Virus record (IMG/VR): IMGVR_UViG_3300020196_000021
Span: 10,962 to 74,961 of that record
Reading direction: 5' to 3' (one strand)
Source: a virus
Length of the DNA stretch: 64,000 nucleotides
Position numbers and translations under genes: made by a program. The notes under the pieces are model-generated. The model made no database searches, was not told the DNA's origin, and worked only from the letters and a program-made list of their open reading frames with translations. This document shows positions 4,142 through 64,000 of this stretch, in pieces; position 1 is the first letter of the stretch, and each line of letters begins with the position of its first letter.

Positions 4142-6856
4142 TTATTTAGCGATTGCTTCAGAGAATGAAATGCCAGTTCTTGTAGCAGTGAAGGTAAGAG
4201 TAATAAAGTTAATAGAACGAGCAGGTTGTATAAAGATGTCAGCAACAAACTCATTTCTGTCAATTACGGCAGAAGTATTGTTTGATCCATCGCAAACTAA
4301 GAGATAATCATAAAGACCTCTTCTTGCTTGAACATCTCTTAAGAATGGTTCAACAATTGCCTTAAATGAATTTCTTGTTGTTTCGTCGTTAATTTCAAAG
4401 AGTTGTGCTTTAGCAGCATTCTCAATTGCTCTTTCAAGAATAAGGAATAGGCGACGAACATTAATTCTATCAAAGGCACTTGGAGTTGCGAGAGCAGTTT
4501 TATCTCCAAAGAGAACTGGTCCTTGACCTGGGAATGAAGCGATAGGATTAATTCGATTTGAATAAAGTTCATCTCTATCAACTTTATTTGGATTCCAAGC
4601 TAATTTTGCTGCTCCTTTGATTCCACCTCTGGTAAATCCAGCAGGAGAAAACCAAGGTTCTGCACTAATTGCACTATCTGCTACCAGTCCAGCAACATCA
4701 CTATTGCATGGAATATAGCGATAGACATCATTCCATCTATCATAAACATACTTGTAATTACAATCTAAAATAAGATATGAAGTACTAACAACATCTTTAA
4801 AGAATAATTTTAAGTTCTGTACAATATCTTGATTTCTCAGTGGTAAACCAGAAGATGCAATAATGTTTCCTTTATGTGGAGAAGCAAATGCAATACAATC
4901 TTTTCTATATGATGCAATACCAGCAATATGATTAATCTTTTGACGTGTCAAATCTGCAGTACTGCACCCAGGACCAACAATAAGATAATCAAGATCAACA
5001 TTATCCAAATCTCTAAATTCATCATAAGCAGAGATAATATCAGTAATAGATACTTCCCAATCGGTAGCACCATTTGCTAATGAATATGAAATAGATCCTT
5101 TTGGAGTAAATGTTGCGGTCCTAGAAGCATTTTCAAATAAGGTATCTCCAACGTAAATATACTCACTGGAATCTGAAACTATCTTTTTGTAATAATTGAT
5201 TCCACCTTCTGGTCCTTTAGCATTGTTTGCTTTAGATGCATAAGTATAAACTTCAAGAACAGTATCTTTTGATCCACTTATTCCACCATCTTCATCTACT
5301 ACAGCAACGTGTATCGCATCTAACCCCAAAGAACTACCATAGAATGCAGCAGCATCTTCAGTCGCTACTGGTCTTGCAGCAAGAGAATTCCATTTAATGG
5401 TAGAACCAGTATATAAAGTTTTTGCTTCATACCAAGCAGAACCATCATCTACTGATGCAATGGTAAGATTGGATTGAGTACCAATGTTAACAACGTCAGT
5501 TGTAGCAAATAATTGGTTTGATTCTGGATTTGGTACATACTCATTGTTAGTATTTACAATAATAATGTGAACCGAAGTATAATTTGTCTCGCTTACTTTT
5601 ACTGTGGAAACATCAATAACTTTTCCTTTTTTAGTACCACTGGTTACGATATCTCCAACTAAAATGTTTGCATTTTCAGTTGACAATGTTAAACTTTGTT
5701 TTGGACCATTATCTATAACACAAACTCTTAAGTTATTGCCCCAAGCACCCTTTGTTCTACCTGCAAACAACCATCCAGAACTGTTGCCTAAGAACTGCGC
5801 TTCATAAACATCTGAGTTGTTGATTTTTACGGCTTCTGCTGCAATAGCAGCAGTTGCAGTGGCGGTTACACCTGGATCTGGGAAAGTAACTGTTAAGTTA
5901 GTAAAGTCACTAAAATTACCAAAGTTGGTAACCGTAACGTTAGTTACTGATCCATTACTAACTGTTGCAGTTCCTTGAAACGGAGTGGTTACTGTTCCAC
6001 TACTACTAACTGTTATTGGATAACTTTGATTTACATCATAGTTTGTACCACCACTGGTTACGGTAACTACAACGCCATTTGGTTGTGCAACTACAAGAGT
6101 TGGAGCGGTTGTATATCCAGTACCACCACTTAATACGATTGATTGTATTTGACCATTTGCTACGGTTGCAGTAGCAGTTCCTCCAGTACCACCACCACCA
6201 CTTACAGTGATCTGTGGTGCTGTCTGATAACCAGATCCTGCATTAGTGATATTAGCATTTCCAGTCAAATTGCCTCCAGAGAGGTTTCCCCCACCTGCCT
6301 CAGCTGTAGCTCTAGTTCCTCTTGCAACAGTTCCCAATGCTGTAACACCAACTGGAGAGATAGTAACTGATGGAGCAGAAGTGTATCCAGATCCAAGTTG
6401 TTCTACGACGATAGAAGATACTCTTCCTTGTGCGTTAATTATTGCTCTTGCAGTTGCTTGAGTAGCACCTGGAGTAGTTGGAGCACCAACAGTTACAGTT
6501 GGAGCACTGACATACTTTCCATTTGTTGAAGCATTGTTAACTGTAATTGCAGAAACGTAGTTACCTAATCTAGCAACTGAGTTAAATTGATTTGGGGTAT
6601 CAATTCTTACGACTGAAAGTGTACCACCATACGAAAGAAAATTAGTAGCACTTAACCAATATTCTGCGTTTTCTTCTCTTGGTTCACCAAAGACATTAAT
6701 AAGCTCACTTTCTGTTGAAATTAAAACTGGGTTTCCAATTTCTCCTTTCTTAAAAGTTGCGGCAAAACCTGCAATATTATTAAGAGTAGCGTCAGCTCTA
6801 CCGTTTGTAAGATCCTTTTCTTTAACAAGAATCCCTGGGGAGCGTAAAGTTGCCAT
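4142..6856 (-). CDS. gp18: Tail sheath protein gp18 (enlarged, 904 aa)
   Basis: N-terminal LRSPGILVKEKDLT; C-terminal PWFSPAG, LFGDKT, FDRINVRRLF, FEIND, IQPARSINFITLTF. Confidence 0.97.
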   Translation of the reverse strand: MATLRSPGILVKEKDLTNGRADATLNNIAGFAATFKKGEIGNPVLISTESELINVFGEPREENAEYWLSATNFLSYGGTLSVVRIDTPNQFNSVARLGNYVSAITVNNASTNGKYVSAPTVTVGAPTTPGATQATARAIINAQGRVSSIVVEQLGSGYTSAPSVTISPVGVTALGTVARGTRATAEAGGGNLSGGNLTGNANITNAGSGYQTAPQITVSGGGGTGGTATATVANGQIQSIVLSGGTGYTTAPTLVVAQPNGVVVTVTSGGTNYDVNQSYPITVSSSGTVTTPFQGTATVSNGSVTNVTVTNFGNFSDFTNLTVTFPDPGVTATATAAIAAEAVKINNSDVYEAQFLGNSSGWLFAGRTKGAWGNNLRVCVIDNGPKQSLTLSTENANILVGDIVTSGTKKGKVIDVSTVKVSETNYTSVHIIIVNTNNEYVPNPESNQLFATTDVVNIGTQSNLTIASVDDGSAWYEAKTLYTGSTIKWNSLAARPVATEDAAAFYGSSLGLDAIHVAVVDEDGGISGSKDTVLEVYTYASKANNAKGPEGGINYYKKIVSDSSEYIYVGDTLFENASRTATFTPKGSISYSLANGATDWEVSITDIISAYDEFRDLDNVDLDYLIVGPGCSTADLTRQKINHIAGIASYRKDCIAFASPHKGNIIASSGLPLRNQDIVQNLKLFFKDVVSTSYLILDCNYKYVYDRWNDVYRYIPCNSDVAGLVADSAISAEPWFSPAGFTRGGIKGAAKLAWNPNKVDRDELYSNRINPIASFPGQGPVLFGDKTALATPSAFDRINVRRLFLILERAIENAAKAQLFEINDETTRNSFKAIVEPFLRDVQARRGLYDYLLVCDGSNNTSAVIDRNEFVADIFIQPARSINFITLTFTATRTGISFSEAIAK

Positions 6857-10550: not shown

Positions 10551-11423
10551 TTATACATTCCTATTTCCGTATTCTCCAAATGGATTTGTTTCAGTGAAAT
10601 CTAAAATATTATCACCTGTATTTTCAACTTTGATGTTGTCAGCGTAGGTATCCTTAATATCTAGTTCATCAAAACCAGTAATATTTATAGTAAATCCACT
10701 TTGTAATCCTGTAAGAGTTTCATTCTTAACAAATTCACCGTCAAAGGATCTTAATTCCACATAAGGTGGATTGTTATTAAAGTTGATTTTATTTATTCTT
10801 GCTTTAGATCCTGATGTAGATCCAACAACTTCTTCCCCAATTTCTGGGGAACCATTTAATTGATTATAGTAATACTTAATGATAAAACCTTCATCAACTT
10901 GAGTATCAAATATTCCTTCATTTGGAACTTCATCTCTATATTCATAAAGTTCACATTTTAATTTATACGTATATAATTTACCAAATTGGTAAAATGGATC
11001 TTCATGCTCAACAAATTTAATTTCAAAAAAATTATCTGTCAAAGGAAAATGAATAATATCTCCTTCTTGTGGTCTATCTCCAACAAGCACTCCTTCAATA
11101 TTTGCCATTGACATAGTAACAAAATCTTCAAATCTCTGTCTTGAAATTACCAGAGTAATTTCATCCGTTGATCTAATACCAAATTTTGTCAGAAGGTCAC
11201 CCTGTCCTTGAAATCCATCAAAATTTTCCATGTATGCTTCTATCAAATATGCATCTGAAAATTGAGATGCGATAACTTCATTTAAGATATCATCTTTGTT
11301 TATAATTTGTCTTGGAATATAATGTATATCTAAACCAAACATTTTAATGTATTCATCAACCAAAGATTGATTAAGAAACTGTTCGTTTCTAGTACCGTGA
11401 GTAAAGTAAGTAGATCTAGGCAT
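10551..11423 (-). CDS. gp14: Neck protein gp14
   Basis: Motifs YIPR, LLTKFG, RPQEGDII, FEIKFVEHEDPFYQFG, C-terminal DFTETNPFG. Confidence 0.93.
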   Translation of the reverse strand: MPRSTYFTHGTRNEQFLNQSLVDEYIKMFGLDIHYIPRQIINKDDILNEVIASQFSDAYLIEAYMENFDGFQGQGDLLTKFGIRSTDEITLVISRQRFEDFVTMSMANIEGVLVGDRPQEGDIIHFPLTDNFFEIKFVEHEDPFYQFGKLYTYKLKCELYEYRDEVPNEGIFDTQVDEGFIIKYYYNQLNGSPEIGEEVVGSTSGSKARINKINFNNNPPYVELRSFDGEFVKNETLTGLQSGFTINITGFDELDIKDTYADNIKVENTGDNILDFTETNPFGEYGNRNV

Positions 11424-27952: not shown

Positions 27953-30900
27953 TTATGCCAGTACTGTTTGTGATACTACTTTGACGTTATAAACTATAGT
28001 TGAAGATCCTGTAAGATCTGTTACTTTTATCGCTACATTATTCGACCCATCTAATTCAGCTTCAACATCACATAAAACTACATCAGTATATATCTTATTA
28101 CTTTCAGTATAAATGATATCAGATCCATTTGATTTGACGATATATGATATTTCTGAATATTGTCTTCTAGAAATAGTAGAGTCATCGGAAATTTCAATCA
28201 TAACCTTCCCAGAATATGATTGAGTATATGGAAATAGTGGTATTGAAGTTGAATTTCCAGATGCAGTATTAATTGTAGAAACACCAGATGCAATTCTTGA
28301 ATCTTTTAAATTAAATTGTCTTAAATCTTTATCAAATAATTTAATATAACTTGATGCTACATTTTGACCATATAAATTATTTACAAGAAATTCTCCATTA
28401 ATACCAAATTTTATAAATTCTCTATATGATGAGGTTAATGTAAACGATAGTCCACCAGAAGAAACTGCTGCTATTCTTGCTGCAGATCCATCACTGGTAA
28501 ATTCGAGTATACTACTTCCAAGAATCAATTTATCAGAATTGAATACTATATTTTGACCAGGGTTTGTGAACGTTAACTGACCATAAATGTTTCTTACATA
28601 TTTTAATTCCGCTGTTCCATTTGCAAAATTATTTCCAGTAGTATTTGTTGGAGCAGTTGTGCCAAGTGTACCTGATTGCATAACCATGTACACATTGATT
28701 CCATAATAAATGAATACACTTGGTTGATTGCCTGTTGGTGCAGTTACTGTTCCACCAGAAGTCCATTCTGGAATTCCATTTATATCAGTAGCATCTATTG
28801 ATGTTATTTTTTGCAAAACAATTTTATTCTGTTCAACCTGCATAGATTGAACACCATCATTTACAAATCGTATAATATTATCATCATCTCCTGGATTTAA
28901 TTCTGCACTAATATAAGTATTTCCATCAACATCTCTTACGCCACCAAGAGAAACAAAATAATTTCCATTAAAACCTTCAAATCTAGATTCATTTGTATTA
29001 AATCTAATTGCTCCTGCTCCAGGTGCAGGAGGTCTTTCTGCGGTGCTTCCAGATGGAACAACTAATGCTTTTGATCCACTAATTTCAACTAAAGCATTTG
29101 CAGAAATTACAAGATTGCCAGGAGTGATTTTATTAATTTGGTTATTAGTTATTGATAACGAATCATTAATATTAATACCTGAAGTAGTACTTACTTTTAA
29201 TTGTTTTGAAGTTATAGATCCATCAATTGGATCAAGTTTAATTACATCTGTAGAAGTAGCAGCACCAAATTGATAGAAATATTCTTGTCCATAGAATCCT
29301 AAAGATGCAGTACCATTTGTAACTGTTCCAGTTGTATGGATAGGTGCATTTATTCCAAAAGTACCACTGGCAGTTACTTCATAAAAATTAGATTGATGCT
29401 TTACATAAGATCCAGATTGCACTTGAGCATTTGCTGTCCAATTTGTATAAACTGGTCTAAATGAGTTTGGAAGGTAAATTTTATCTCCTTCTTCATATCC
29501 AATTCCTAAATTATTGATCTCAGTTACTGTTACTACTCCAATAGTTTCAACTCTAAATTTAAAACTAGTAGTTGGAACTGTTGATGGTATTGCCGCATTA
29601 GTTATTGTATCAACATATGTCATACTTGCGGGATCTACCGTGAGTAGATCAAATACCTGATATCCAGATCCGCCGTCAACTATTGTAATTGAAGTTACTT
29701 TTCCACCAACAACTTCAATGTCTGCTTTTGCGCCAGTTCCTCCAGTGGAAGTTCCAATTGTAGCAACTTTAAAATTAAATCCAGATCCACTAGTTAATGT
29801 TGATACTGTTAAAGTTGCACCACTACCAACGTTGGTTTCTAATACTTGTATTGTACCATAATACGCAGAATTATTTGCTGAAATATAATAATATGTACCT
29901 GGAATATTAGGTGTCCAAGTTATGACTCCAGATGAAGCACCATTATTCGTAACACCTGCAACATTATAGGTCGGATCATATCCACTATATGCACCTAATT
30001 GAGATACAATATAAAATGCATTATTTACTAATCCATTTCCTGGAGCACTTACATCAAAAGTCAAATCATCAAATTTATTTACTGTTAATGTTGGATTTGT
30101 TCCTGTGGCAGAACCAGTAAAAACATAACCAGAAGGAGAAGTATCTGTTACATTATACGTGTATGTTGCAGTACTATTAAAACTAGTGGTATCTACTGAT
30201 AAAGTATCGCCTGATACATATCCTGCTCCTGGTTGGTTTATAGTTGCAGATGTTATAAGACCCCCAGAAACAGTAATATTTGCTGTTGCTCCTTGACCTA
30301 ATGAACCAATATTAGTTAAAGTTACATTATTATAATTACCGTTTGCATAATTTGATCCACCAGAAGTTATAGATAATTGATTAATTTGTGATCCACCTAA
30401 ATTGGATACATTTGCAGATAATGTATCATTTACTGTGTATCCAGATCCACCATTTGTTATTGATATATTTGTTACAGAACCAGAAGCAATAGTAACTGTT
30501 GCTTTAGCAAAATTTCCAGTTCCACCAGTCAATGGGACATTTGTGTATGTTCCATTGATATAATTTGATCCACCATTTAAATTAGAAGTAGTTAATACTG
30601 AACCACCTGGAAGAACAGAATAAATTAAAGGAATATCTACATAAGTTGCATCAGTATATCCAAAACCTTGTTCAGTAAGAATACCATCAAATGCAACAGT
30701 AACATCAAATCTTAATCCACTTCCACTTCCACCTAAAACTTCTTGATTTGTATATTTTCCTAATTGATATGCTGAACCTTTTTGTATTGTTGGATCAGCA
30801 AAAGATACAGTTACAAAATTTGTTTTTTTATAAAAATCTGTTCTATCTGCAGAAAATCTTAATATTCTTCCTTGATCTCCAACAGCACTAAATTTGCCAT

Positions 30901-57769: not shown

Positions 57770-58161
57770 TATACTCTTTCTAATACGAGGTTAAGTGATT
57801 GAATATCTAAAGGAATTCCAATTATGCTATAATTAATATCTATAGCTATTGAATTAGAATCAATACTAGAATTGACTTTTATAGTCACTATTTCGACCCT
57901 TGGTTCATATGCTCTTATTGCATCTGACAATGCTGCCTCTATTGTGGCATTTGTGGTGCCATCAAAATTCTCAAATAGTGTTAAAGATGCATTTGAACCA
58001 AAAAATGGTAAGAATGGTCTTTCAAATTTAGCTGTAGTAACAATATTTTTGATTGATTGTCTAATGGCATCCTCATTCTTTAGTGTCGCCACATCGCCAG
58101 TGATTGGATTACGTGTTAATGTTGGGTTAAGATCAACAAATTTTTTAGAAATTTGCGCCAT
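57769..58161 (-). CDS. gp25: Baseplate wedge subunit gp25
   Basis: Motifs AIRQSIKNIV, ERPF..FGS, YEPRV. Confidence 0.92.
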   Translation of the reverse strand: MAQISKKFVDLNPTLTRNPITGDVATLKNEDAIRQSIKNIVTTAKFERPFLPFFGSNASLTLFENFDGTTNATIEAALSDAIRAYEPRVEIVTIKVNSSIDSNSIAIDINYSIIGIPLDIQSLNLVLERV

Positions 58162-58194
58162 TTTGCCTTCCTTTATACACTATATAGCGGTAAA

Positions 58195-58395
58195 TTAGAC
58201 GAACCACTCCACATAATCATCAAAACCATCTTTTCCGCCACATTGGCGAGAAAGACGGTCATCTGGCACTGTATATTTTGCTTTTTTTGCTAGTTTTAAG
58301 TACTTTTCTGATGCTAAATTAGTAATCAGAACCAGTGTTCCATGCTCTTTTTGCATGATTTCTGGAATAAAATCTGGATTTGGTGAGTTTGCCAT
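58195..58395 (-). CDS. Conserved cyanophage hypothetical protein
   Basis: 66 aa, MANSPNPD..., with AAGGAGG RBS (inside a hairpin). Confidence 0.75.
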   Translation of the reverse strand: MANSPNPDFIPEIMQKEHGTLVLITNLASEKYLKLAKKAKYTVPDDRLSRQCGGKDGFDDYVEWFV

Positions 58396-58396
58396 T

Positions 58397-58441
58397 AAAA
58401 AACCTCCTTAAATTCTGTTTCCAGAACTTTTAAGGAGGTTT
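58397..58441 (-). terminator. Long GAAA-tetraloop hairpin with U-tract that also sequesters an AAGGAGG RBS
   Basis: Minus strand reads AAACCTCCTTAAAAGTTCTG-GAAA-CAGAATTTAAGGAGGTTTTTT-A-ATG. Confidence 0.7.
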
Positions 58442-58474
58442 CTATCTCCAAAAATATTTATTTTTGGACTTTAT

Positions 58475-58627
58475 TCAGGATTTTCCTTGACCACGATACC
58501 TTTTTTTACGTCCATTGCGAGAAGAAGCACTCAGAAGTGTATTTTTTGAGCACCCTTGACGTGTTTTTTTCGGTCCACTTGGTTTAAATTCAATACGAGC
58601 TAATCCAACTTTTGATCTGGCAGCCAT
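58475..58627 (-). CDS. 50-aa highly basic protein
   Basis: Manually translated: MAARSKVGLARIEFKPSGPKKTRQGCSKNTLLSASSRNGRKKRYRGQGKS. Has its own sigma70 promoter. Confidence 0.8.
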   Translation of the reverse strand: MAARSKVGLARIEFKPSGPKKTRQGCSKNTLLSASSRNGRKKRYRGQGKS

Positions 58628-58654
58628 AGATTCGGATTTTTTAACTACTTGACT

Positions 58655-58683
58655 AGTATAGCAGGGATTTGGGGAGTTGTCAA
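58655..58683 (-). promoter_or_regulatory. Near-consensus sigma70 promoter TTGACA-N17-TATACT
   Basis: -35 at 58678-58683, 17-nt spacer, -10 at 58655-58660. Confidence 0.88.
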
Positions 58684-58689
58684 GAGGGT

Positions 58690-58995
58690 TTAGAAGATAC
58701 CTGCAAAGACATTATATGACCCCTGAGCAATTTTATCGCCACATGCGATCTGATCACCAATCCTACCAGGGGGTCTCATGTTAAAATAAACGTTCAGAGG
58801 ACCGTCTGAGATCGGTCTAAAGGTGTGTGGAGGAGGGCATTGGGCACATGGACATGCATGGGGGGCAAACAGGTCTCCAATCCTGCCTGCAGGGATCATA
58901 TTGACATAGACATTTTGTGATGCTTGAGTCAACGCTGTTGGTGGATAGCAAATATGCCCAGTGGACATTGCTCCAATGTATGTGCAACCTTTCAT
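58690..58995 (-). CDS. PAAR-repeat spike tip protein (gp5.4-like)
   Basis: Motifs GH, NVYVN..PAGRIGD..PH, H..I..G..NVYFN..PPGRIGD..CG..IAQGS.NVF. Confidence 0.9.
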   Translation of the reverse strand: MKGCTYIGAMSTGHICYPPTALTQASQNVYVNMIPAGRIGDLFAPHACPCAQCPPPHTFRPISDGPLNVYFNMRPPGRIGDQIACGDKIAQGSYNVFAGIF

Positions 58996-58997
58996 AG

Positions 58998-59756
58998 TTA
59001 ACCTATAATTTCTAGTATTTGTTCGTCAGACAAACGACCTGTCTGACTATTTACCTTATTTACAAACCTTCGTGAGGCAATGTCTTTATCATCGTACACA
59101 ATTTGTTTAATTGGGAATGTTCCTGCTCCAATTCCGCATGAACTTGTAACGATTACCGTAAATTGCACAATAATCATGTAGTTTGGATCTGGATAATAAT
59201 GCTGCATATGATTATGACCACTAGGAATCTCAGCCTCCATTCCAGTAACAGGTGTCCCTGCAATCGGCAACCCCCCTAACGGATTTTTATAGATTGATCG
59301 AAGAGTAGCAGATCCTTGATTTAAAGTTCCATAGGTTGCTGGATACCCACTTGGAGATGTTGTAGTGGTCGGTAAATGAATAACACCACCAGGAAGATCA
59401 TTACGATACTTATATTGCTTGTTAGGAAATAGATAATCCGTATAAGTACCCGTAACGGTCATTGTAATTGTACCAGGAAAGGTACATGTTGCTGTCGCCA
59501 CACCAGTCCCCAAGGTAGCACTACCGCTTGTACCTGATGTACTGATTAATGTGACGATTAAACCAGGATCTCCAAAATATGCAGAAGGGCTTACTACTGG
59601 TTGGAAACTAGGCACAGTGACTGTAAAAACCTCTGGTACTCCAGGTGGAATTGGTGGGCATATCACACCAGTCCAAATATTTGGAGTCCAAACGACTGGT
59701 TTCATCACAATACTAGGTTGTGGTTGAATTGGTGTATAAACGGTAGGAACTGGCAT
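58998..59756 (-). CDS. Pro/Thr-rich hypothetical protein (paralog of the C-terminal half of the next ORF)
   Basis: 252 aa; shares LFPN, EIP..M..Y..DP, V.FTV and GAG motifs with 59756..61240. Confidence 0.7.
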   Translation of the reverse strand: MPVPTVYTPIQPQPSIVMKPVVWTPNIWTGVICPPIPPGVPEVFTVTVPSFQPVVSPSAYFGDPGLIVTLISTSGTSGSATLGTGVATATCTFPGTITMTVTGTYTDYLFPNKQYKYRNDLPGGVIHLPTTTTSPSGYPATYGTLNQGSATLRSIYKNPLGGLPIAGTPVTGMEAEIPSGHNHMQHYYPDPNYMIIVQFTVIVTSSCGIGAGTFPIKQIVYDDKDIASRRFVNKVNSQTGRLSDEQILEIIG

Positions 59757-61240
59757 TATTTGACTCTCCTGACACCTTGAGCATCTAAAACATCTTCAAA
59801 AAGTTCTACACCAATTCTCTGATCATTCATTACATATAATGTTGTACTCCATGATCCTGCACCATGAGAGGGTACGTTTGCAATATTTGATGGTATATAA
59901 CGATAAGTAATACCACTATTATCAACAAAAAATGCAGTTCCACTGGGTCCTACATCAGGAGGGACATCGGGTGGAAGACCAGGACTAACAAGTCCACCAA
60001 CTTCAACCAAATAGGTATTACCGCCATTAGTTACATAAGACCCAGCAGTTAAGGTAAGACCAATCGCCCATGCAATTGCATTTAATGATGGGATAACACT
60101 AGTCACAGTAAAATTTAATACTACATCTAGATCTTGACCTGGATCTTGTACATACTTCATAATCATAGCATTCGCTGGTATCTCTTCAGATAAATCTCTC
60201 ACAATACCCGTTCCATTCTTATTTTGTTGATCAATACGATATGCATCAATAAACGTATTGGGATCAACAGGTAATACTTTATCAATCGTACTTGTTCCTG
60301 TCTGCGTTACCCATTGAGTATTTGTAATTGTTGCTTTGGTCTGTGTTATGTTACCATTACCATCTACTACTGCATCTGCAGTACTTGTCTGTATTACATC
60401 AAATGCTCTTGGATATTCTGTTGGTACAGAAATCTTCAAATGCCCTGATACTGGAGTATAGGTCTTTGGTAATCTTGTCTCTGCGTCAAATTTCTCAAAA
60501 TAATATTCCCAAGTATCATTTGGAAATAACTTTTTCCCAAACTTACCTCTGACTTCAATGTCAATTGTTTGTGGATATGTAGCAGTCATACTAATCGTAC
60601 CACTCGTACTTGTAGCAGTTGCAGTAACACCATCACTTCTCCTAAATGTAACCGTTGCATCATCATCCAAATATGGTGCAGTACTTCCAATATTAGGAAC
60701 CATACTATTAAATGTAATCGTAAAGGTCTCATTCCTTACAATACTTCCAACTGGTTCTGATGATGAACAACTTATAAAATAAAAATTATTTGGTTGACTC
60801 GCCCACTTTGGTTTTCCATAAACATCAAATCCAATTGCCTCTAATCTAATATCCATCGTCCTCCTCTGATTTAACGATGGTTCAGCAACCTGATTGCCAT
60901 TCTCATCAAAACAACATCCTGTATAATTATTGTTCAATGATTCACCAAGTTCCTCACCAATATACACAATCCTATTACGTATATTACTATACTCACTCAC
61001 ATTGAACTGAGTATTATTACACGCATCACGTGTAAAATTTGTCGGTAACTTTTCTTGCTGACGAAAAGAAGTCCCTGGGATACCTCTCAGCATACCAGAG
61101 ACACTTGGTAATGGTGTCGCAGCAGTTCCCCTTGGAAATTGCCCAGTCGTTGTATTCCCCTTGTCTACATCGTAGAGAACATCAATCTGAAATGGATTCA
61201 CTCCAATTGGTTCATTGATCTGCTTATAATATGGCATCAA
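59756..61240 (-). CDS. Hypothetical structural protein (494 aa) with a CBM-like insert
   Basis: Long ORF translationally coupled on both sides. Confidence 0.72.
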   Translation of the reverse strand: MMPYYKQINEPIGVNPFQIDVLYDVDKGNTTTGQFPRGTAATPLPSVSGMLRGIPGTSFRQQEKLPTNFTRDACNNTQFNVSEYSNIRNRIVYIGEELGESLNNNYTGCCFDENGNQVAEPSLNQRRTMDIRLEAIGFDVYGKPKWASQPNNFYFISCSSSEPVGSIVRNETFTITFNSMVPNIGSTAPYLDDDATVTFRRSDGVTATATSTSGTISMTATYPQTIDIEVRGKFGKKLFPNDTWEYYFEKFDAETRLPKTYTPVSGHLKISVPTEYPRAFDVIQTSTADAVVDGNGNITQTKATITNTQWVTQTGTSTIDKVLPVDPNTFIDAYRIDQQNKNGTGIVRDLSEEIPANAMIMKYVQDPGQDLDVVLNFTVTSVIPSLNAIAWAIGLTLTAGSYVTNGGNTYLVEVGGLVSPGLPPDVPPDVGPSGTAFFVDNSGITYRYIPSNIANVPSHGAGSWSTTLYVMNDQRIGVELFEDVLDAQGVRRVK

Positions 61241-61491
61241 TCCTCACTGTCTTCCAAATAATTTAACATGAAAAAGTCCTCTGCTCCTTCGTAATCTCTA
61301 AAGTAATACGTGTCGCCATCTGGAGCATTTAAAATAAACTTGTCGATAAAACTATCGTAATCAATCATAGGATCTTTTGATACATTCATTATGGCATCCT
61401 CATAAAACTCTTCATAACTTTTACTATCCCAATCGTCAAAATTTACATGATCTGTCCAATTTTCGTCGAAACTATAACTTGGCGTATTCAT
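61237..61491 (-). CDS. Small acidic, aromatic-rich hypothetical protein
   Basis: GGAG RBS; 84 aa. Confidence 0.7.
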   Translation of the reverse strand: MNTPSYSFDENWTDHVNFDDWDSKSYEEFYEDAIMNVSKDPMIDYDSFIDKFILNAPDGDTYYFRDYEGAEDFFMLNYLEDSED

Positions 61492-61700
61492 TGTGTCTCC
61501 ATACGACTATTGTATATATTTGGGTATTGAACGTTTTTACCCAGAAAAAAATTTTTCATTTTGGCGTTAATACGAAGTCCCTGGGGGACCTTTGTAGGTT
61601 AAAGGGACCCTTGGCATTTTAAACGCACGGCTTCGCCTTATATAAGGGCGCTAATCGCGCCACTGTTTTATACTTAGTGCCGTGGCAGTTAGTTACATCG

Positions 61701-61722
61701 AAGGGGGGCGATGTGCCCCCCG
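61701..61722 (-). terminator. GC hairpin closing the early cassette array
   Basis: GGGGGGC-ACATC-GCCCCCC-TT just after the stop of 61730..62020; weak U-tract. Confidence 0.5.
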
Positions 61723-61729
61723 CTCAGTG

Positions 61730-62020
61730 TCACCAAACGAGGCGGGTGAACGTTACACCATCAGCGTGCACACAGTGCTCATTGATCCAGAAACCAAGGG
61801 ACACAGTAGGCATCAGTTTCAGCGCAGCGATTGCGCGACGGGATACACCGAGATAGAGGTAGGAGTTGCCGTTCTTGAATGTAGCAATCACCGTTCCATA
61901 CTTGATGCTCGCCTGAATCTTAGCGATGGCGCTACTGTTGCGCTCTGGGGTCTTGATCAGTTCGATGCTGTCCTGATCGGTGCTGATCTGGGGGAGAGCG
62001 ATGGGGGAGTTGATGGTCAT
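61730..62020 (-). CDS. Early minigene A, KTSC-like domain
   Basis: SSAI...TFKNG.SYLY.GV...SLG.WIN pattern matches KTSC. Confidence 0.7.
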   Translation of the reverse strand: MTINSPIALPQISTDQDSIELIKTPERNSSAIAKIQASIKYGTVIATFKNGNSYLYLGVSRRAIAALKLMPTVSLGFWINEHCVHADGVTFTRLVW

Positions 62021-62044
62021 GGTCTGTTTGTGGTTGACTCTGTG

Positions 62045-62103
62045 ATTCTAGGCGCGGGGGGAGGGAGGAGGGGGGCAGGAAGTGCCACCCCCTCGATTGT
62101 CCA
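62045..62103 (-). promoter_or_regulatory. Early promoter module 1
   Basis: Minus strand TGGACA-N10-TGGCAC, 31 nt, TAGAAT. Confidence 0.75.
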
Positions 62104-62280
62104 TCAGATGGCGCTGGTGCCCTTGGCGACCCACAGGGCAAGACGCATCGTGCTCGCCTTGGCGACTGCCTCAGCGGCGCGACCCTCGGCAAGCGCCTGC
62201 TTTTTCAGGGGGGAACGCTGAGCATCGGGGGCACCGATGAGAACGTTGCGAGCGATCTGGAGGGTTTGCTGTTTGGTCAT
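62104..62280 (-). CDS. Early minigene B (58 aa, Ala-rich, basic)
   Basis: MTKQQTLQIARNVLIG...; start set by the leader of the upstream module. Confidence 0.7.
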   Translation of the reverse strand: MTKQQTLQIARNVLIGAPDAQRSPLKKQALAEGRAAEAVAKASTMRLALWVAKGTSAI

Positions 62281-62307
62281 GGTTTGGTTCGTTTGGTTGA
62301 TGTGATC

Positions 62308-62366
62308 AGTATAGAGGGGGAAGGGGGCATCCGTCGCCCCCTGATGGACAGATCCTAGAGTGTCAC
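62308..62366 (-). promoter_or_regulatory. Early promoter module 2
   Basis: GTGACA-N10-TGTCCA, 31 nt (containing a GC hairpin), TATACT. Confidence 0.8.
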
Positions 62367-62518
62367 TCCTCAGGACCGAAGCAGGACTCAAGGCAAAATG
62401 CCTCCAGTTCCTGGTCGTCATCCCACAGCGAGAAGGTGTCGTCATCCTCCAGATCTTCCCAGAAGGTCTCGATCAGTTCGTCGATCTGCTGGTCATCGGT
62501 CAGGGTGAAAGTGGTCAT
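62363..62518 (-). CDS. Early minigene C (51 aa, extremely acidic)
   Basis: MTTFTLTDDQQIDELIETFWEDLEDDDTFSLWDDDQELEAFCLESCFGPEE. Confidence 0.7.
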   Translation of the reverse strand: MTTFTLTDDQQIDELIETFWEDLEDDDTFSLWDDDQELEAFCLESCFGPEE

Positions 62519-62545
62519 AGGTCGGTGTCGTTGGTTGACTTGATC

Positions 62546-62604
62546 AGTATAGAGGGTCAATGGGCGCGGGTGGGGGTGCTGAGGGACACCTTGGGAGGTG
62601 GCAC
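62546..62604 (-). promoter_or_regulatory. Early promoter module 3
   Basis: GTGCCA-N10-TGTCCC, 31 nt, TATACT. Confidence 0.8.
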
Positions 62605-62715
62605 CCGCTGATCGCTCTCATGGAGGAGGTGGACTGTCCAAGATGCCACCACAACGCTGACGGAACAGAATAGCATGATGGCGATGGATCGCCGCAGGTC
62701 GTTGTCCGTGGTCAT
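62557..62715 (-). CDS. Early minigene D (52 aa, one predicted TM helix)
   Basis: MTTDNDLRRSIAIMLFCSVSVVVASWTVHLL...; TGATG overlap with minigene E. Confidence 0.6.
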   Translation of the reverse strand: MTTDNDLRRSIAIMLFCSVSVVVASWTVHLLHESDQRVPPPKVSLSTPTRAH

Positions 62716-62900
62716 CAGGCGACAACCTCCAACCAGGCGATGGGTTTGCCATGGGTCAGACGCCACACGATCATAGGAGCGCCTCCCTCGTCAACTGACC
62801 AATCGAAGGCGATGTCCCTGGCAGTGTCGAGATCAGGGGCGAACTCAGCACCGTGCTGATCGAAGGTGCCGAAGGATTTGGGTTGGATTGCGAAGGTCAT
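62715..62900 (-). CDS. Early minigene E (61 aa)
   Basis: MTFAIQPKSFGTFDQHGAEFA...AFDWSVD..IVWR..WLEVVA. Confidence 0.72.
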   Translation of the reverse strand: MTFAIQPKSFGTFDQHGAEFAPDLDTARDIAFDWSVDEGGAPMIVWRLTHGKPIAWLEVVA

Positions 62901-62921
62901 TGGTTCTCTGTTGATGTGATC

Positions 62922-62979
62922 AGTATAGGCGCTCAGGGCATCTCACAGGCGCCAGGGAGGACACTGTTGTAGGTGGCAC
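62922..62979 (-). promoter_or_regulatory. Early promoter module 4
   Basis: GTGCCA-N10-TGTCCT, 30 nt, TATACT. Confidence 0.8.
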
Positions 62980-63109
62980 AGCGGGCGGCGGTCTGTTGGT
63001 TGACTGCCTGAACGGTGTCAGCAGCGAACTCGATGGCAGCAGATCCTACAGCAGCGATAGGAGCGTAAAAGGCAGCGCCAAGGGCAAGGGTGAGGAGGGT
63101 CTTGGGCAT
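62933..63109 (-). CDS. Early minigene F (58 aa, signal-peptide-like N-terminus, 2 Cys)
   Basis: Manually translated: MPKTLLTLALGAAFYAPIAAVGSAAIEFAADTVQAVNQQTAARCATYNSVLPGACEMP. Confidence 0.7.
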   Translation of the reverse strand: MPKTLLTLALGAAFYAPIAAVGSAAIEFAADTVQAVNQQTAARCATYNSVLPGACEMP

Positions 63110-63135
63110 GGTTTGGTCGTTTGGTTGTTGTGGTT

Positions 63136-63194
63136 AGTATGGCAGGAAATGGGGGGCATTGCAACCCCCCTGTGGACAGTTCAGAGATCGACCA
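63136..63194 (-). promoter_or_regulatory. Early promoter module 5
   Basis: Degenerate TGGTCG-N10-TGTCCA, 31 nt containing a hairpin with TTGCAA at the -35 position, then TGn-CATACT. Confidence 0.75.
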
Positions 63195-63438
63195 TCATGT
63201 CGTTCATCTCGTCTGCGTCGATCTTAGGGTCGTTCCATGCCACACCGTCGCCAGTGGCACCGAGCATCCGCCCAATCTGCCCTTCCATCATACACCGCTG
63301 GAACTTCTCCCAGGGGGTCTCCCAATCGGCACAGTAGGTCACACACGCTTTGGCGGTGTTGTAGAGGAACTCATCGTTCTGAACCCAGAGGGAAGCGTTC
63401 CAGGTTTCGTAGTTTGCCCAACCGTTGTAGGTGGTCAT
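63181..63438 (-). CDS. Early minigene G (85 aa, YNGWxNYETW family)
   Basis: MTTYNGWANYETWNASLWVQNDEFLY...TGDGVAW; start set by the leader. Confidence 0.78.
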   Translation of the reverse strand: MTTYNGWANYETWNASLWVQNDEFLYNTAKACVTYCADWETPWEKFQRCMMEGQIGRMLGATGDGVAWNDPKIDADEMNDMMVDL

Positions 63439-63465
63439 GGTTCGGTTCGTTTGGTTGATGGGTTT

Positions 63466-63523
63466 AGTATGGCACCCCCTAGGATGGGTTTGTGGGTTGG
63501 GTGGACAGTGCCTCAACTGCCAC
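63466..63523 (-). promoter_or_regulatory. Early promoter module 6
   Basis: GTGGCA-N10-TGTCCA, 30 nt, TGn-CATACT. Confidence 0.78.
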
Positions 63524-63667
63524 AACGCGACCAGTTTGGAGGTAGAAGTCCTCAGCGAGTTGGACTGCCTCTTCATAGGTGTCCGCGAAGAACGTGAAGA
63601 AGTCACCAGAGACATCGCGTGAGAAGGTGGACACGATGAACGGTTTGGACTGGGAGGAGGTGAGCAC
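63479..63667 (-). CDS. Early minigene H (62 aa, GTG start)
   Basis: Contains FADTYEEAVQLAEDFY; follows promoter module 7. Confidence 0.62.
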   Translation of the reverse strand: MLTSSQSKPFIVSTFSRDVSGDFFTFFADTYEEAVQLAEDFYLQTGRVVAVEALSTQPTNPS

Positions 63668-63692
63668 TTGGGTGTCCGTTTGGTATGGACTC

Positions 63693-63751
63693 AGTATAGA
63701 GGGTCAGGGGGTCAGTGGCGGTCGCTGTTGTGCCACTTGTCATAGTGTCCA
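63693..63751 (-). promoter_or_regulatory. Early promoter module 7
   Basis: TGGACA-N10-TGGCAC, 31 nt, TATACT. Confidence 0.8.
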
Positions 63752-63839
63752 CTACCCTCTAGACAGACCGCCACCTAGGACCTAACCTAGAGGGCGGGAG
63801 GGGAGGGAAGGAAAGGCAGCGAAGCGACTGCCCAGTTGG

Positions 63840-64000
63840 TTATACTAAGACGTGGCAATAATCAATGGATTTGATACACCAACCTGTCCAGGATGTGATC
63901 TCTTCAATGAGATCATCTTCATCATCTGCCTCCCAGATGTTTCCTACTGTGTCGTCGATGATGTCATTCATCTCAGCAGATGTGATCTCATCTTCAGGGG
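63840..64000 (-). CDS. Acidic early protein, 3' part (start lies outside the window)
   Basis: Reads ...PEDEITSAEMNDIIDDTVGNIWEADDEDDLIEEITSWTGWCIKSIDYCHVLV*. Confidence 0.7.
   Translation of the reverse strand, partial: PEDEITSAEMNDIIDDTVGNIWEADDEDDLIEEITSWTGWCIKSIDYCHVLV

Follow-up and report, generated by a model that had tools for sequence, protein, structure and literature searches.

Promoter cassettes of an uncultured T4-like cyanomyophage probably belong to the known early-promoter type of this phage group, with a dyad that resembles a host Yfr2 promoter site

Doron et al. are said to have described, in 2016 in ISME J, a novel regulatory element for the early genes of Syn9 and P-TIM40 which is conserved among the T4-like cyanophages. 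Another repeated unit, the PeSL of phages RB49 and phi1, combines a sigma-70 promoter with polyG/polyC stem-loops, whose position within the promoter varies (Arbiol et al. 2010, PMC2839356). On the host side, the yfr2 promoters of Prochlorococcus carry CGRE1, a palindrome which starts at -55 to -57 and binds the GntR regulator PMM1637/PlmA (Lambrecht et al. 2018, PMC6191309). This regulator is found in all cyanobacteria and has been linked to induction under nitrogen starvation and high light (PMC6191309); in MED4, CGRE1 occurs only at yfr2 promoters (PMC6778093), and phages are not mentioned in either of these papers. Here we analyze a stretch of viral DNA of 64,000 nucleotides (nt), hereafter the window (IMG/VR record IMGVR_UViG_3300020196_000021, positions 10,962 to 74,961), near the end of which seven dyad-bearing promoter modules (M1 to M7) accompany eight small genes in an island rich in guanine plus cytosine (GC). 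We propose that these modules are cassettes of the known early-promoter type of cyanomyophages and that their dyad is read by a protein, and assign this reading a probability of about 0.72.

All seven modules lie on the minus strand and consist of a 22-bp dyad, 30–31 nt, a -10 hexamer (TATACT in four, CATACT in two and TAGAAT in one) and an A/C-rich leader which ends at the start codon (Table 1). The dyad arms are GTGNCA and TGKCMC with a 10-nt centre and, assuming that transcription starts about 7 nt after the -10 hexamer, the dyad is centred near -54 and spans about -65 to -44. A -35-like hexamer is present only in M5 (TTGCAA at 63159–63164, with 17-nt spacing), the other six modules matching TTGACA at no more than three of six positions, and the extended -10 TGn is found at both CATACT copies (M5 and M6). 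On all these points the first-pass annotation is borne out: the positions of the seven dyads, the spacing and the -10 counts, promoters mostly devoid of a -35 (six of seven), the exception in the fifth module, the TGn at both CATACT copies, the fixed geometry near -54 (given the assumed start) and the judgment, in keeping with the arms and centre given above, that this is neither an NtcA (GTA-N8-TAC) nor a CRP (TGTGA-N6-TCACA) site. Its description of the leaders as A/C-rich also stands, but not the upper limit of its range of 21–30 nt; the leaders measure 21–27 nt, are G-poor with 74–96% A+C, and have no Shine-Dalgarno sequence.

The modules are interlocked with the ends of the preceding genes. 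For M3, M4 and M6, the dyad is encoded within the 3' end of the preceding open reading frame (ORF), and the -10 hexamer comes 5–7 nt past the stop codon; the stop codon forms part of the left arm in M2, falls between the two arms in M5, immediately ahead of the right one, and stands immediately ahead of the whole dyad in M1. The seven promoter units hold eight ORFs of 50–96 amino acids (aa); the start of ORF4 overlaps the stop of ORF5 (TGATG), and ORF4 has no promoter of its own.

The dyads were scored with a 25-column matrix which, to avoid circularity, was derived from 16 modules belonging to three other phages (L007, L009 and L010). They reached 10.6–18.8 bits and were the seven best positions on the coding strand of the island, the next best scoring 9.3 bits; none of 3000 shuffles attained 10.6 bits. 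Among the training modules, two are preceded by homologues of the genes that precede M2 and M5; M3, M4, M6 and M7, which have no counterpart in the training set, still scored 10.6–18.0 bits. The reverse complements of the seven sites gave 6.8–18.1 bits, so the two-fold symmetry is real but uneven. A motif check of the whole 75-kb contig located the dyad together with a correctly spaced -10 only at the seven modules and at 28649 (plus strand), within a structural gene; the latter match is taken as chance. An Rfam scan of positions 58000–64000 revealed no RNA family.

A homologue of the 494-aa gene beside the island led to five related uncultured phages (L007–L012). In these phages the modules, set at a fixed distance from the -10, can be aligned free of gaps and give the consensus GTGaCAGTT-N4-AACTGtcCAC (22–24 bp). 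S-RIM14 shows the full design, namely a 24-bp palindrome, 7 nt, TTGCAA, 17 nt and CATACT. The matrix also located modules before small genes in the gp60–gp92 region of Syn9 and in S-PM2, and a search with the consensus, allowing up to three mismatches, gave three matches in Syn9, two in S-RIM14 and six in S-PM2, a reversed control pattern giving none in these three records. In Syn9, where the matrix found modules, a strict search for the right arm together with the -10 had no match. The cassette type is characterised by a gap of 29–31 nt between dyad and -10, and the modules of the window are in the same register; the window dyads are thus weak copies of a family-wide element.

Since Syn9 carries the same modules, the dyad can be tied to the early-promoter element of cyanomyophages. 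From the Syn9 sequence, we read the window dyad as the early-gene element reported for Syn9, combined here with G/C hairpins of the PeSL kind. The element is thus of a known type, not a new promoter class. Kinship with an upstream motif of Syn9-type early promoters had been suggested in the first-pass annotation, rightly so, as dyad, spacing and -10 are all found in Syn9. The Doron element is reported to be likewise repeated before small early-region genes of T4-like cyanophages, where it replaces the T4 early-promoter pattern; in comparison, the window copies are weaker, six of seven are without a -35, and the block in which they stand far exceeds the genome in GC. The window would add a clear and compact example of a cyanomyophage early-promoter cassette which works without a -35; with this hexamer lacking, whether the promoters depend on a factor at the dyad can readily be tested.

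The leader GACTTCAGTTCAAAC, which follows the -10, is common to S-PM2 (L003), L009 and L012. That S-PM2 and distant uncultured phages have this leader in common suggests selection on the untranslated sequence itself, which may act as a translation signal without a Shine-Dalgarno sequence. In Syn9 (L141, 44773–44860), the annotated start of gp61 (44804) lies inside a dyad-promoter module, and an ATG after the leader is found about 50 nt downstream; the true start of gp61 may thus lie downstream of the annotated one.

In the 9.4-Mb genome of Tolypothrix PCC 7101, a degenerate form of the palindrome matched only once, 43 nt before a Cyano-1 RNA (RF01701), which we take to be the Yfr2 family. Thirty Cyano-1 loci from 121 cyanobacterial genomes were then scored over 110 nt upstream with the phage-trained matrix. 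At 17 of the 30, a site of at least 5 bits ended 36–45 nt before the start of the RNA (1.5% of control windows at the same offsets), and at any offset 12 of the 30 had a site of at least 9 bits (1.4% of control windows); the phage geometry predicts that the dyad should end about 41 nt before the RNA start. With the exact pattern, 7 of 401 cyanobacterial genomes matched, the six new loci having no Rfam match. A contig scan with the exact palindrome listed matches that were mostly from unrelated bacteria, and Cyano-1 was downstream in one of the six cyanobacterial loci listed. RF01701 was not found in five small genomes, in which a pattern with two mismatches gave only chance-like matches.

The phage dyad (22 bp) is similar to CGRE1 in being a palindrome (21–22 bp in CGRE1) with arms of the GT..AC type, 13–14 nt apart, upstream of the -10. 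The arms themselves differ, being GTTG/GTTA in the host (PMC6191309), or GTGACA at the Cyano-1 loci analyzed here, as against TGTCCA/TGGCAC in the window. The use differs as well: the host site is found only before small-RNA genes, the phage dyad before protein genes. To our knowledge, no reader of the cyanophage early dyad has been identified so far, and the first-pass annotation knew of no binding factor; that view now has to be revised, since the arms and the distance which the dyad shares with the Cyano-1 (Yfr2-family) palindrome make host PlmA/PMM1637 a well-founded candidate and the best one. That PlmA is in fact the reader is a tentative proposal, to which we give somewhat less than an even chance, but the promoter match does name one protein that can be tested.

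The anatomy of the modules, their conservation across the family, the likeness to the host site and the cassette differences at the modules (described below) are direct observations. Building on them, we suggest that the island closes the early small-gene region of a T4-like cyanomyophage which is AT-rich and uncultured, and that it comprises seven one-promoter units, each opened by an early-promoter cassette of T4-like cyanophages and presumably expressed early. Host RNA polymerase with its primary sigma factor would depend, for initiation here, on a dimeric protein bound to the dyad; activation by the bound factor, also proposed in the first-pass annotation, is, in our view, the better bet. 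Were PlmA this protein, early phage expression would be tied to a host stress circuit.

Several observations weigh against this proposal. The window copies are degenerate, none of them passing the consensus search at three mismatches, and M5 is without a left arm and has TGTCCA, not TGTCAC, as its right arm. The G-run/C-run hairpins (-14 to -24 kcal/mol), which occur in three of the seven modules (M1, M2 and M5) with a fourth closing the array after ORF1, are all without U-tracts. The Cyano-1 likeness comes from loci that do not include the yfr2 promoters of marine picocyanobacteria, the likely hosts. The predicted start of the phage dyad, about -65, is about one helical turn further out than that of CGRE1 (-55 to -57), a difference which would keep the site on the same face of the helix; in a GC-rich cyanobacterial genome (L144) the offset is 36, nearer to the published CGRE1 position. 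Finally, GntR regulators are often repressors.

This last point, together with the need of temporal classes for a shut-off, leads to another explanation, in which the dyad is an operator where PlmA as a GntR repressor, or an early or middle protein of the phage, closes the early promoters at the middle phase. The -10 boxes are near consensus, two of them with TGn, and some basal activity free of an activator is conceivable. We nevertheless regard such an operator as unlikely. The site near -54 lies outside the polymerase footprint, unlike the usual sites of repressors; six of seven promoters are without a -35 and five of those are also without TGn, which is the usual mark of activator dependence; and PMM1637 has been proposed to govern induction at host yfr2 promoters (PMC6191309).

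No strong G/C hairpin was found at M3, M4, M6 and M7 in the fold check of the modules. Where the upstream gene ends early enough (M1, M2 and M5), the hairpin fills the space between dyad and -10, and most likely it would stop or stabilise the upstream message. The resemblance to PeSLs lies in a repeated early promoter with a polyG/polyC stem-loop before orphan genes in a plastic region, in the upstream stop codon held within the unit, and in units that mark gain, loss and reordering of genes. PeSLs possess a full -35 and -10, an AT-rich upstream region and a Shine-Dalgarno sequence, whereas in the window units the -35 is missing (only M5 matches at four or more of six positions), the dyad stands in place of the AT-rich region, the leader is without a Shine-Dalgarno sequence and a stem-loop is present in three of seven.

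Related phages share the order fam3, fam12, fam4, fam0, fam5, a conserved intergenic region, fam6 and fam7, and differ upstream of it. Between L008 and L012, fam11 and fam3 exchange places. The window has ORF6 ahead of fam3 and, relative to L007–L012, the private genes ORF4 and ORF8; within this set, DUF7249 is present only in the window and L010. When the DUF7249 regions of these two are aligned, homology runs from the upstream module through the gene (about 80%), the stop, the right arm AACTGTCCAC and the start of the hairpin; past the start of the downstream hairpin identity decays, and different genes follow. In comparisons of cassette order, both order and content therefore differ, the DUF7249 homology breaks inside the flanking modules, and the positions of modules coincide with cassette boundaries among relatives, in agreement with the suggestion of the first-pass annotation that the modules could serve as points of cassette shuffling. 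The relatives are distant (40–44% identity in the flanking protein), and single events of gain or loss are untraceable. The cassette differences would fit recombination within modules, as in PeSLs: because the units resemble one another, they could serve as homology for ordinary recombination, through which cassettes would be reordered, added and removed in the manner of the PeSLs of RB49. The array would then represent a second phage group in which repeated promoter units are sites of small-gene exchange. An integron-like system was also considered and rejected; neither an integrase nor an attC-like fold is in view, and the repeats are promoters.

The coincidence of modules with cassette boundaries might also be expected if no protein read the dyad and it were kept as recombination homology or, given that perfect palindrome copies could fold as RNA, as a hairpin at the 3' end of the upstream message. 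We think this very improbable: asymmetry leaves the window copies poorly able to fold, and that job is already done by separate G/C hairpins; conservation is seen in the arms but not in the 10-nt centre or the 30-nt spacer, which vary freely, as in a site read by a protein; and the same arms stand at the same distance before host RNA genes, which are not mobile.

The window makes up the final 64 kb of a 74,961-bp contig with a CheckV completeness of 41%. Its genes include those for portal, sheath, large terminase and T4-type baseplate wedge proteins, and the virus is therefore a T4-like myophage. Myophages of Synechococcus and Prochlorococcus provide the top DNA matches for the stretch; a megablast search of the AT-rich flank against phage records gave no match. 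GC content is about 32% genome-wide and 55–60% at 61700–63830, the jump taking place within 100 bp. In this block every gene is on the minus strand, and the coding strand is C-rich and G-poor; the block edge is 170 bp from the contig end, before which lower-GC sequence returns. GC at third codon positions is 63–76% in the eight island genes against 11–25% in structural genes, amounting to two codon regimes in one genome. The five relatives, with genomes of 32–37% GC, have a block of 50–61% GC in the corresponding position, immediately upstream of the 494-aa gene homologue, one of them on a 186-kb contig which is 99% complete, and S-PM2 (L003) displays the same GC rise in its early block. It is because these phages share the contrast that we consider the block a maintained trait. 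The abrupt jump in GC, the block end so close to the contig end and the DUF7249 gene (about 80% identical to Synechococcus phage genes) could point to a foreign block, formed by chimeric assembly at the contig end or acquired very recently from a Synechococcus phage, in which case the array would be uninformative on this phage; against the blocks of the five relatives, the gene families and order they share at its 3' end together with the following intergenic region, the rise in S-PM2 and the lower-GC sequence before the contig end, this is scarcely credible.

Between the island and the contig end, and cut by the latter, is a partial acidic ORF (63840–63998, minus strand; phrog_2460, GC 42%), which lies upstream of the island and resembles ORF3 in composition; the early region evidently extends past the contig end.

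The GC-rich early genes may be adapted to the tRNA pool of a GC-rich host, being translated before phage tRNAs appear (for background, see PMC3152331 and PMC11726456); alternatively, the high GC may stem from GC-biased repair in a recombination hot spot. Beyond the proposal of early-promoter cassettes with a protein-read dyad, one can imagine, speculatively and with the odds rather against it, that early promoters of T4-like cyanophages at large are CGRE1 look-alikes which copy the host Yfr2 promoter and are switched on by PlmA, coupling the onset of infection to the host circuit for nitrogen and light stress. The AT-rich lineage would be the extreme case, with the -35 lost, promoters moved into the ends of upstream genes and host-like GC-rich codons; if so, such codons would allow early translation before the phage tRNAs are available.

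In family searches all eight island genes proved to encode products of unknown function, and no useful result came from searching solved structures with the sequences of ORF7 and ORF1; with eight genes of no known function, the host-takeover role proposed in the first-pass annotation is a guess. The genes are listed with the other features in Table 1.

Table 1. Positions in the window of the promoter modules, hairpins, small genes and conserved intergenic region
Feature	Position	Strand	Remarks
M7 dyad	63730..63751	-	TGGACA-N10-TGGCAC; non-coding, before the first cassette; 11.0 bits forward, 18.1 reverse complement
M7 -10	63693..63698	-	TATACT; 25-nt leader to GTG start
ORF8	63479..63667	-	62 aa; GTG start; no family match; 3' end encodes M6 dyad
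M6 dyad	63502..63523	-	GTGGCAGTT..CACTGTCCA; best-preserved palindrome, within ORF8; 18.0 bits
M6 -10	63466..63471	-	CATACT with TGn; 27-nt leader
ORF7	63181..63438	-	85 aa; DUF7249 / phrog_871; DNA 72-81% identical to Synechococcus myophage genes
M5 dyad	63173..63194	-	left arm degenerate and coding; right arm AACTGTCCAC after TGA stop; 17.7 bits
M5 hairpin (G6/C6)	63151..63170	-	-16 kcal/mol; contains TTGCAA
M5 -10	63136..63141	-	CATACT with TGn; 26-nt leader, 96% A+C
ORF6	62933..63109	-	58 aa; hydrophobic N-terminus; 3' end encodes M4 dyad
M4 dyad	62958..62979	-	within ORF6; 10.6 bits
M4 -10	62922..62927	-	TATACT; 6 nt past ORF6 stop; 21-nt leader
ORF5	62715..62900	-	61 aa; phrog_6036; homologues in 5/5 related loci
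ORF4	62557..62715	-	52 aa; hydrophobic stretch resembling a membrane span; 3' end encodes M3 dyad
M3 dyad	62583..62604	-	within ORF4; 15.8 bits
M3 -10	62546..62551	-	TATACT; 27-nt leader
ORF3	62363..62515	-	50 aa; acidic; ends FGPEE; TGA stop in M2 left arm GTGACA
M2 dyad	62345..62366	-	left arm GTGACA holds ORF3 TGA stop; 18.8 bits
M2 hairpin (G/C)	62322..62342	-	-14.3 kcal/mol; between dyad and -10
M2 -10	62308..62313	-	TATACT; 27-nt leader
ORF2	62104..62280	-	58 aa; homologues in 5/5 related loci
M1 dyad	62082..62103	-	directly after ORF2 stop; 11.2 bits
M1 hairpin (G/C)	62065..62094	-	-17.7 kcal/mol; overlaps M1 right arm
M1 -10	62045..62050	-	TAGAAT; 24-nt leader
ORF1	61730..62020	-	96 aa; phrog_7365; last cassette
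Closing hairpin (G7/C7)	61703..61721	-	after ORF1; -23.7 kcal/mol with flanks; no U-tract
Conserved intergenic region	61492..61700	-	in relatives at L009 5045-5335 and L002 255-440

The conserved intergenic region is a non-coding stretch of about 200 nt between the last cassette and an 84-aa gene, and is conserved in the relatives and partly in S-RIM14. It contains one to four repeats resembling CACTAAGTATAA, together with blocks such as TAACCTACAAAGGT and AAAAAATTTTT; no consensus RNA fold was supported for it. The motif TTAGTATAA, similar to CACTAAGTATAA, is present at 63852–63860, before the island; over the window, CACTAAGTATAA, found on the flanks of the island, shows no enrichment. A late-promoter-like sequence, GATATATAAAA, was located in the conserved intergenic region of the window and of three relatives. 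In L008 and L009 only (5327–5737 in the latter), an ORF of 136 aa is inserted between this region and the fam6 gene.

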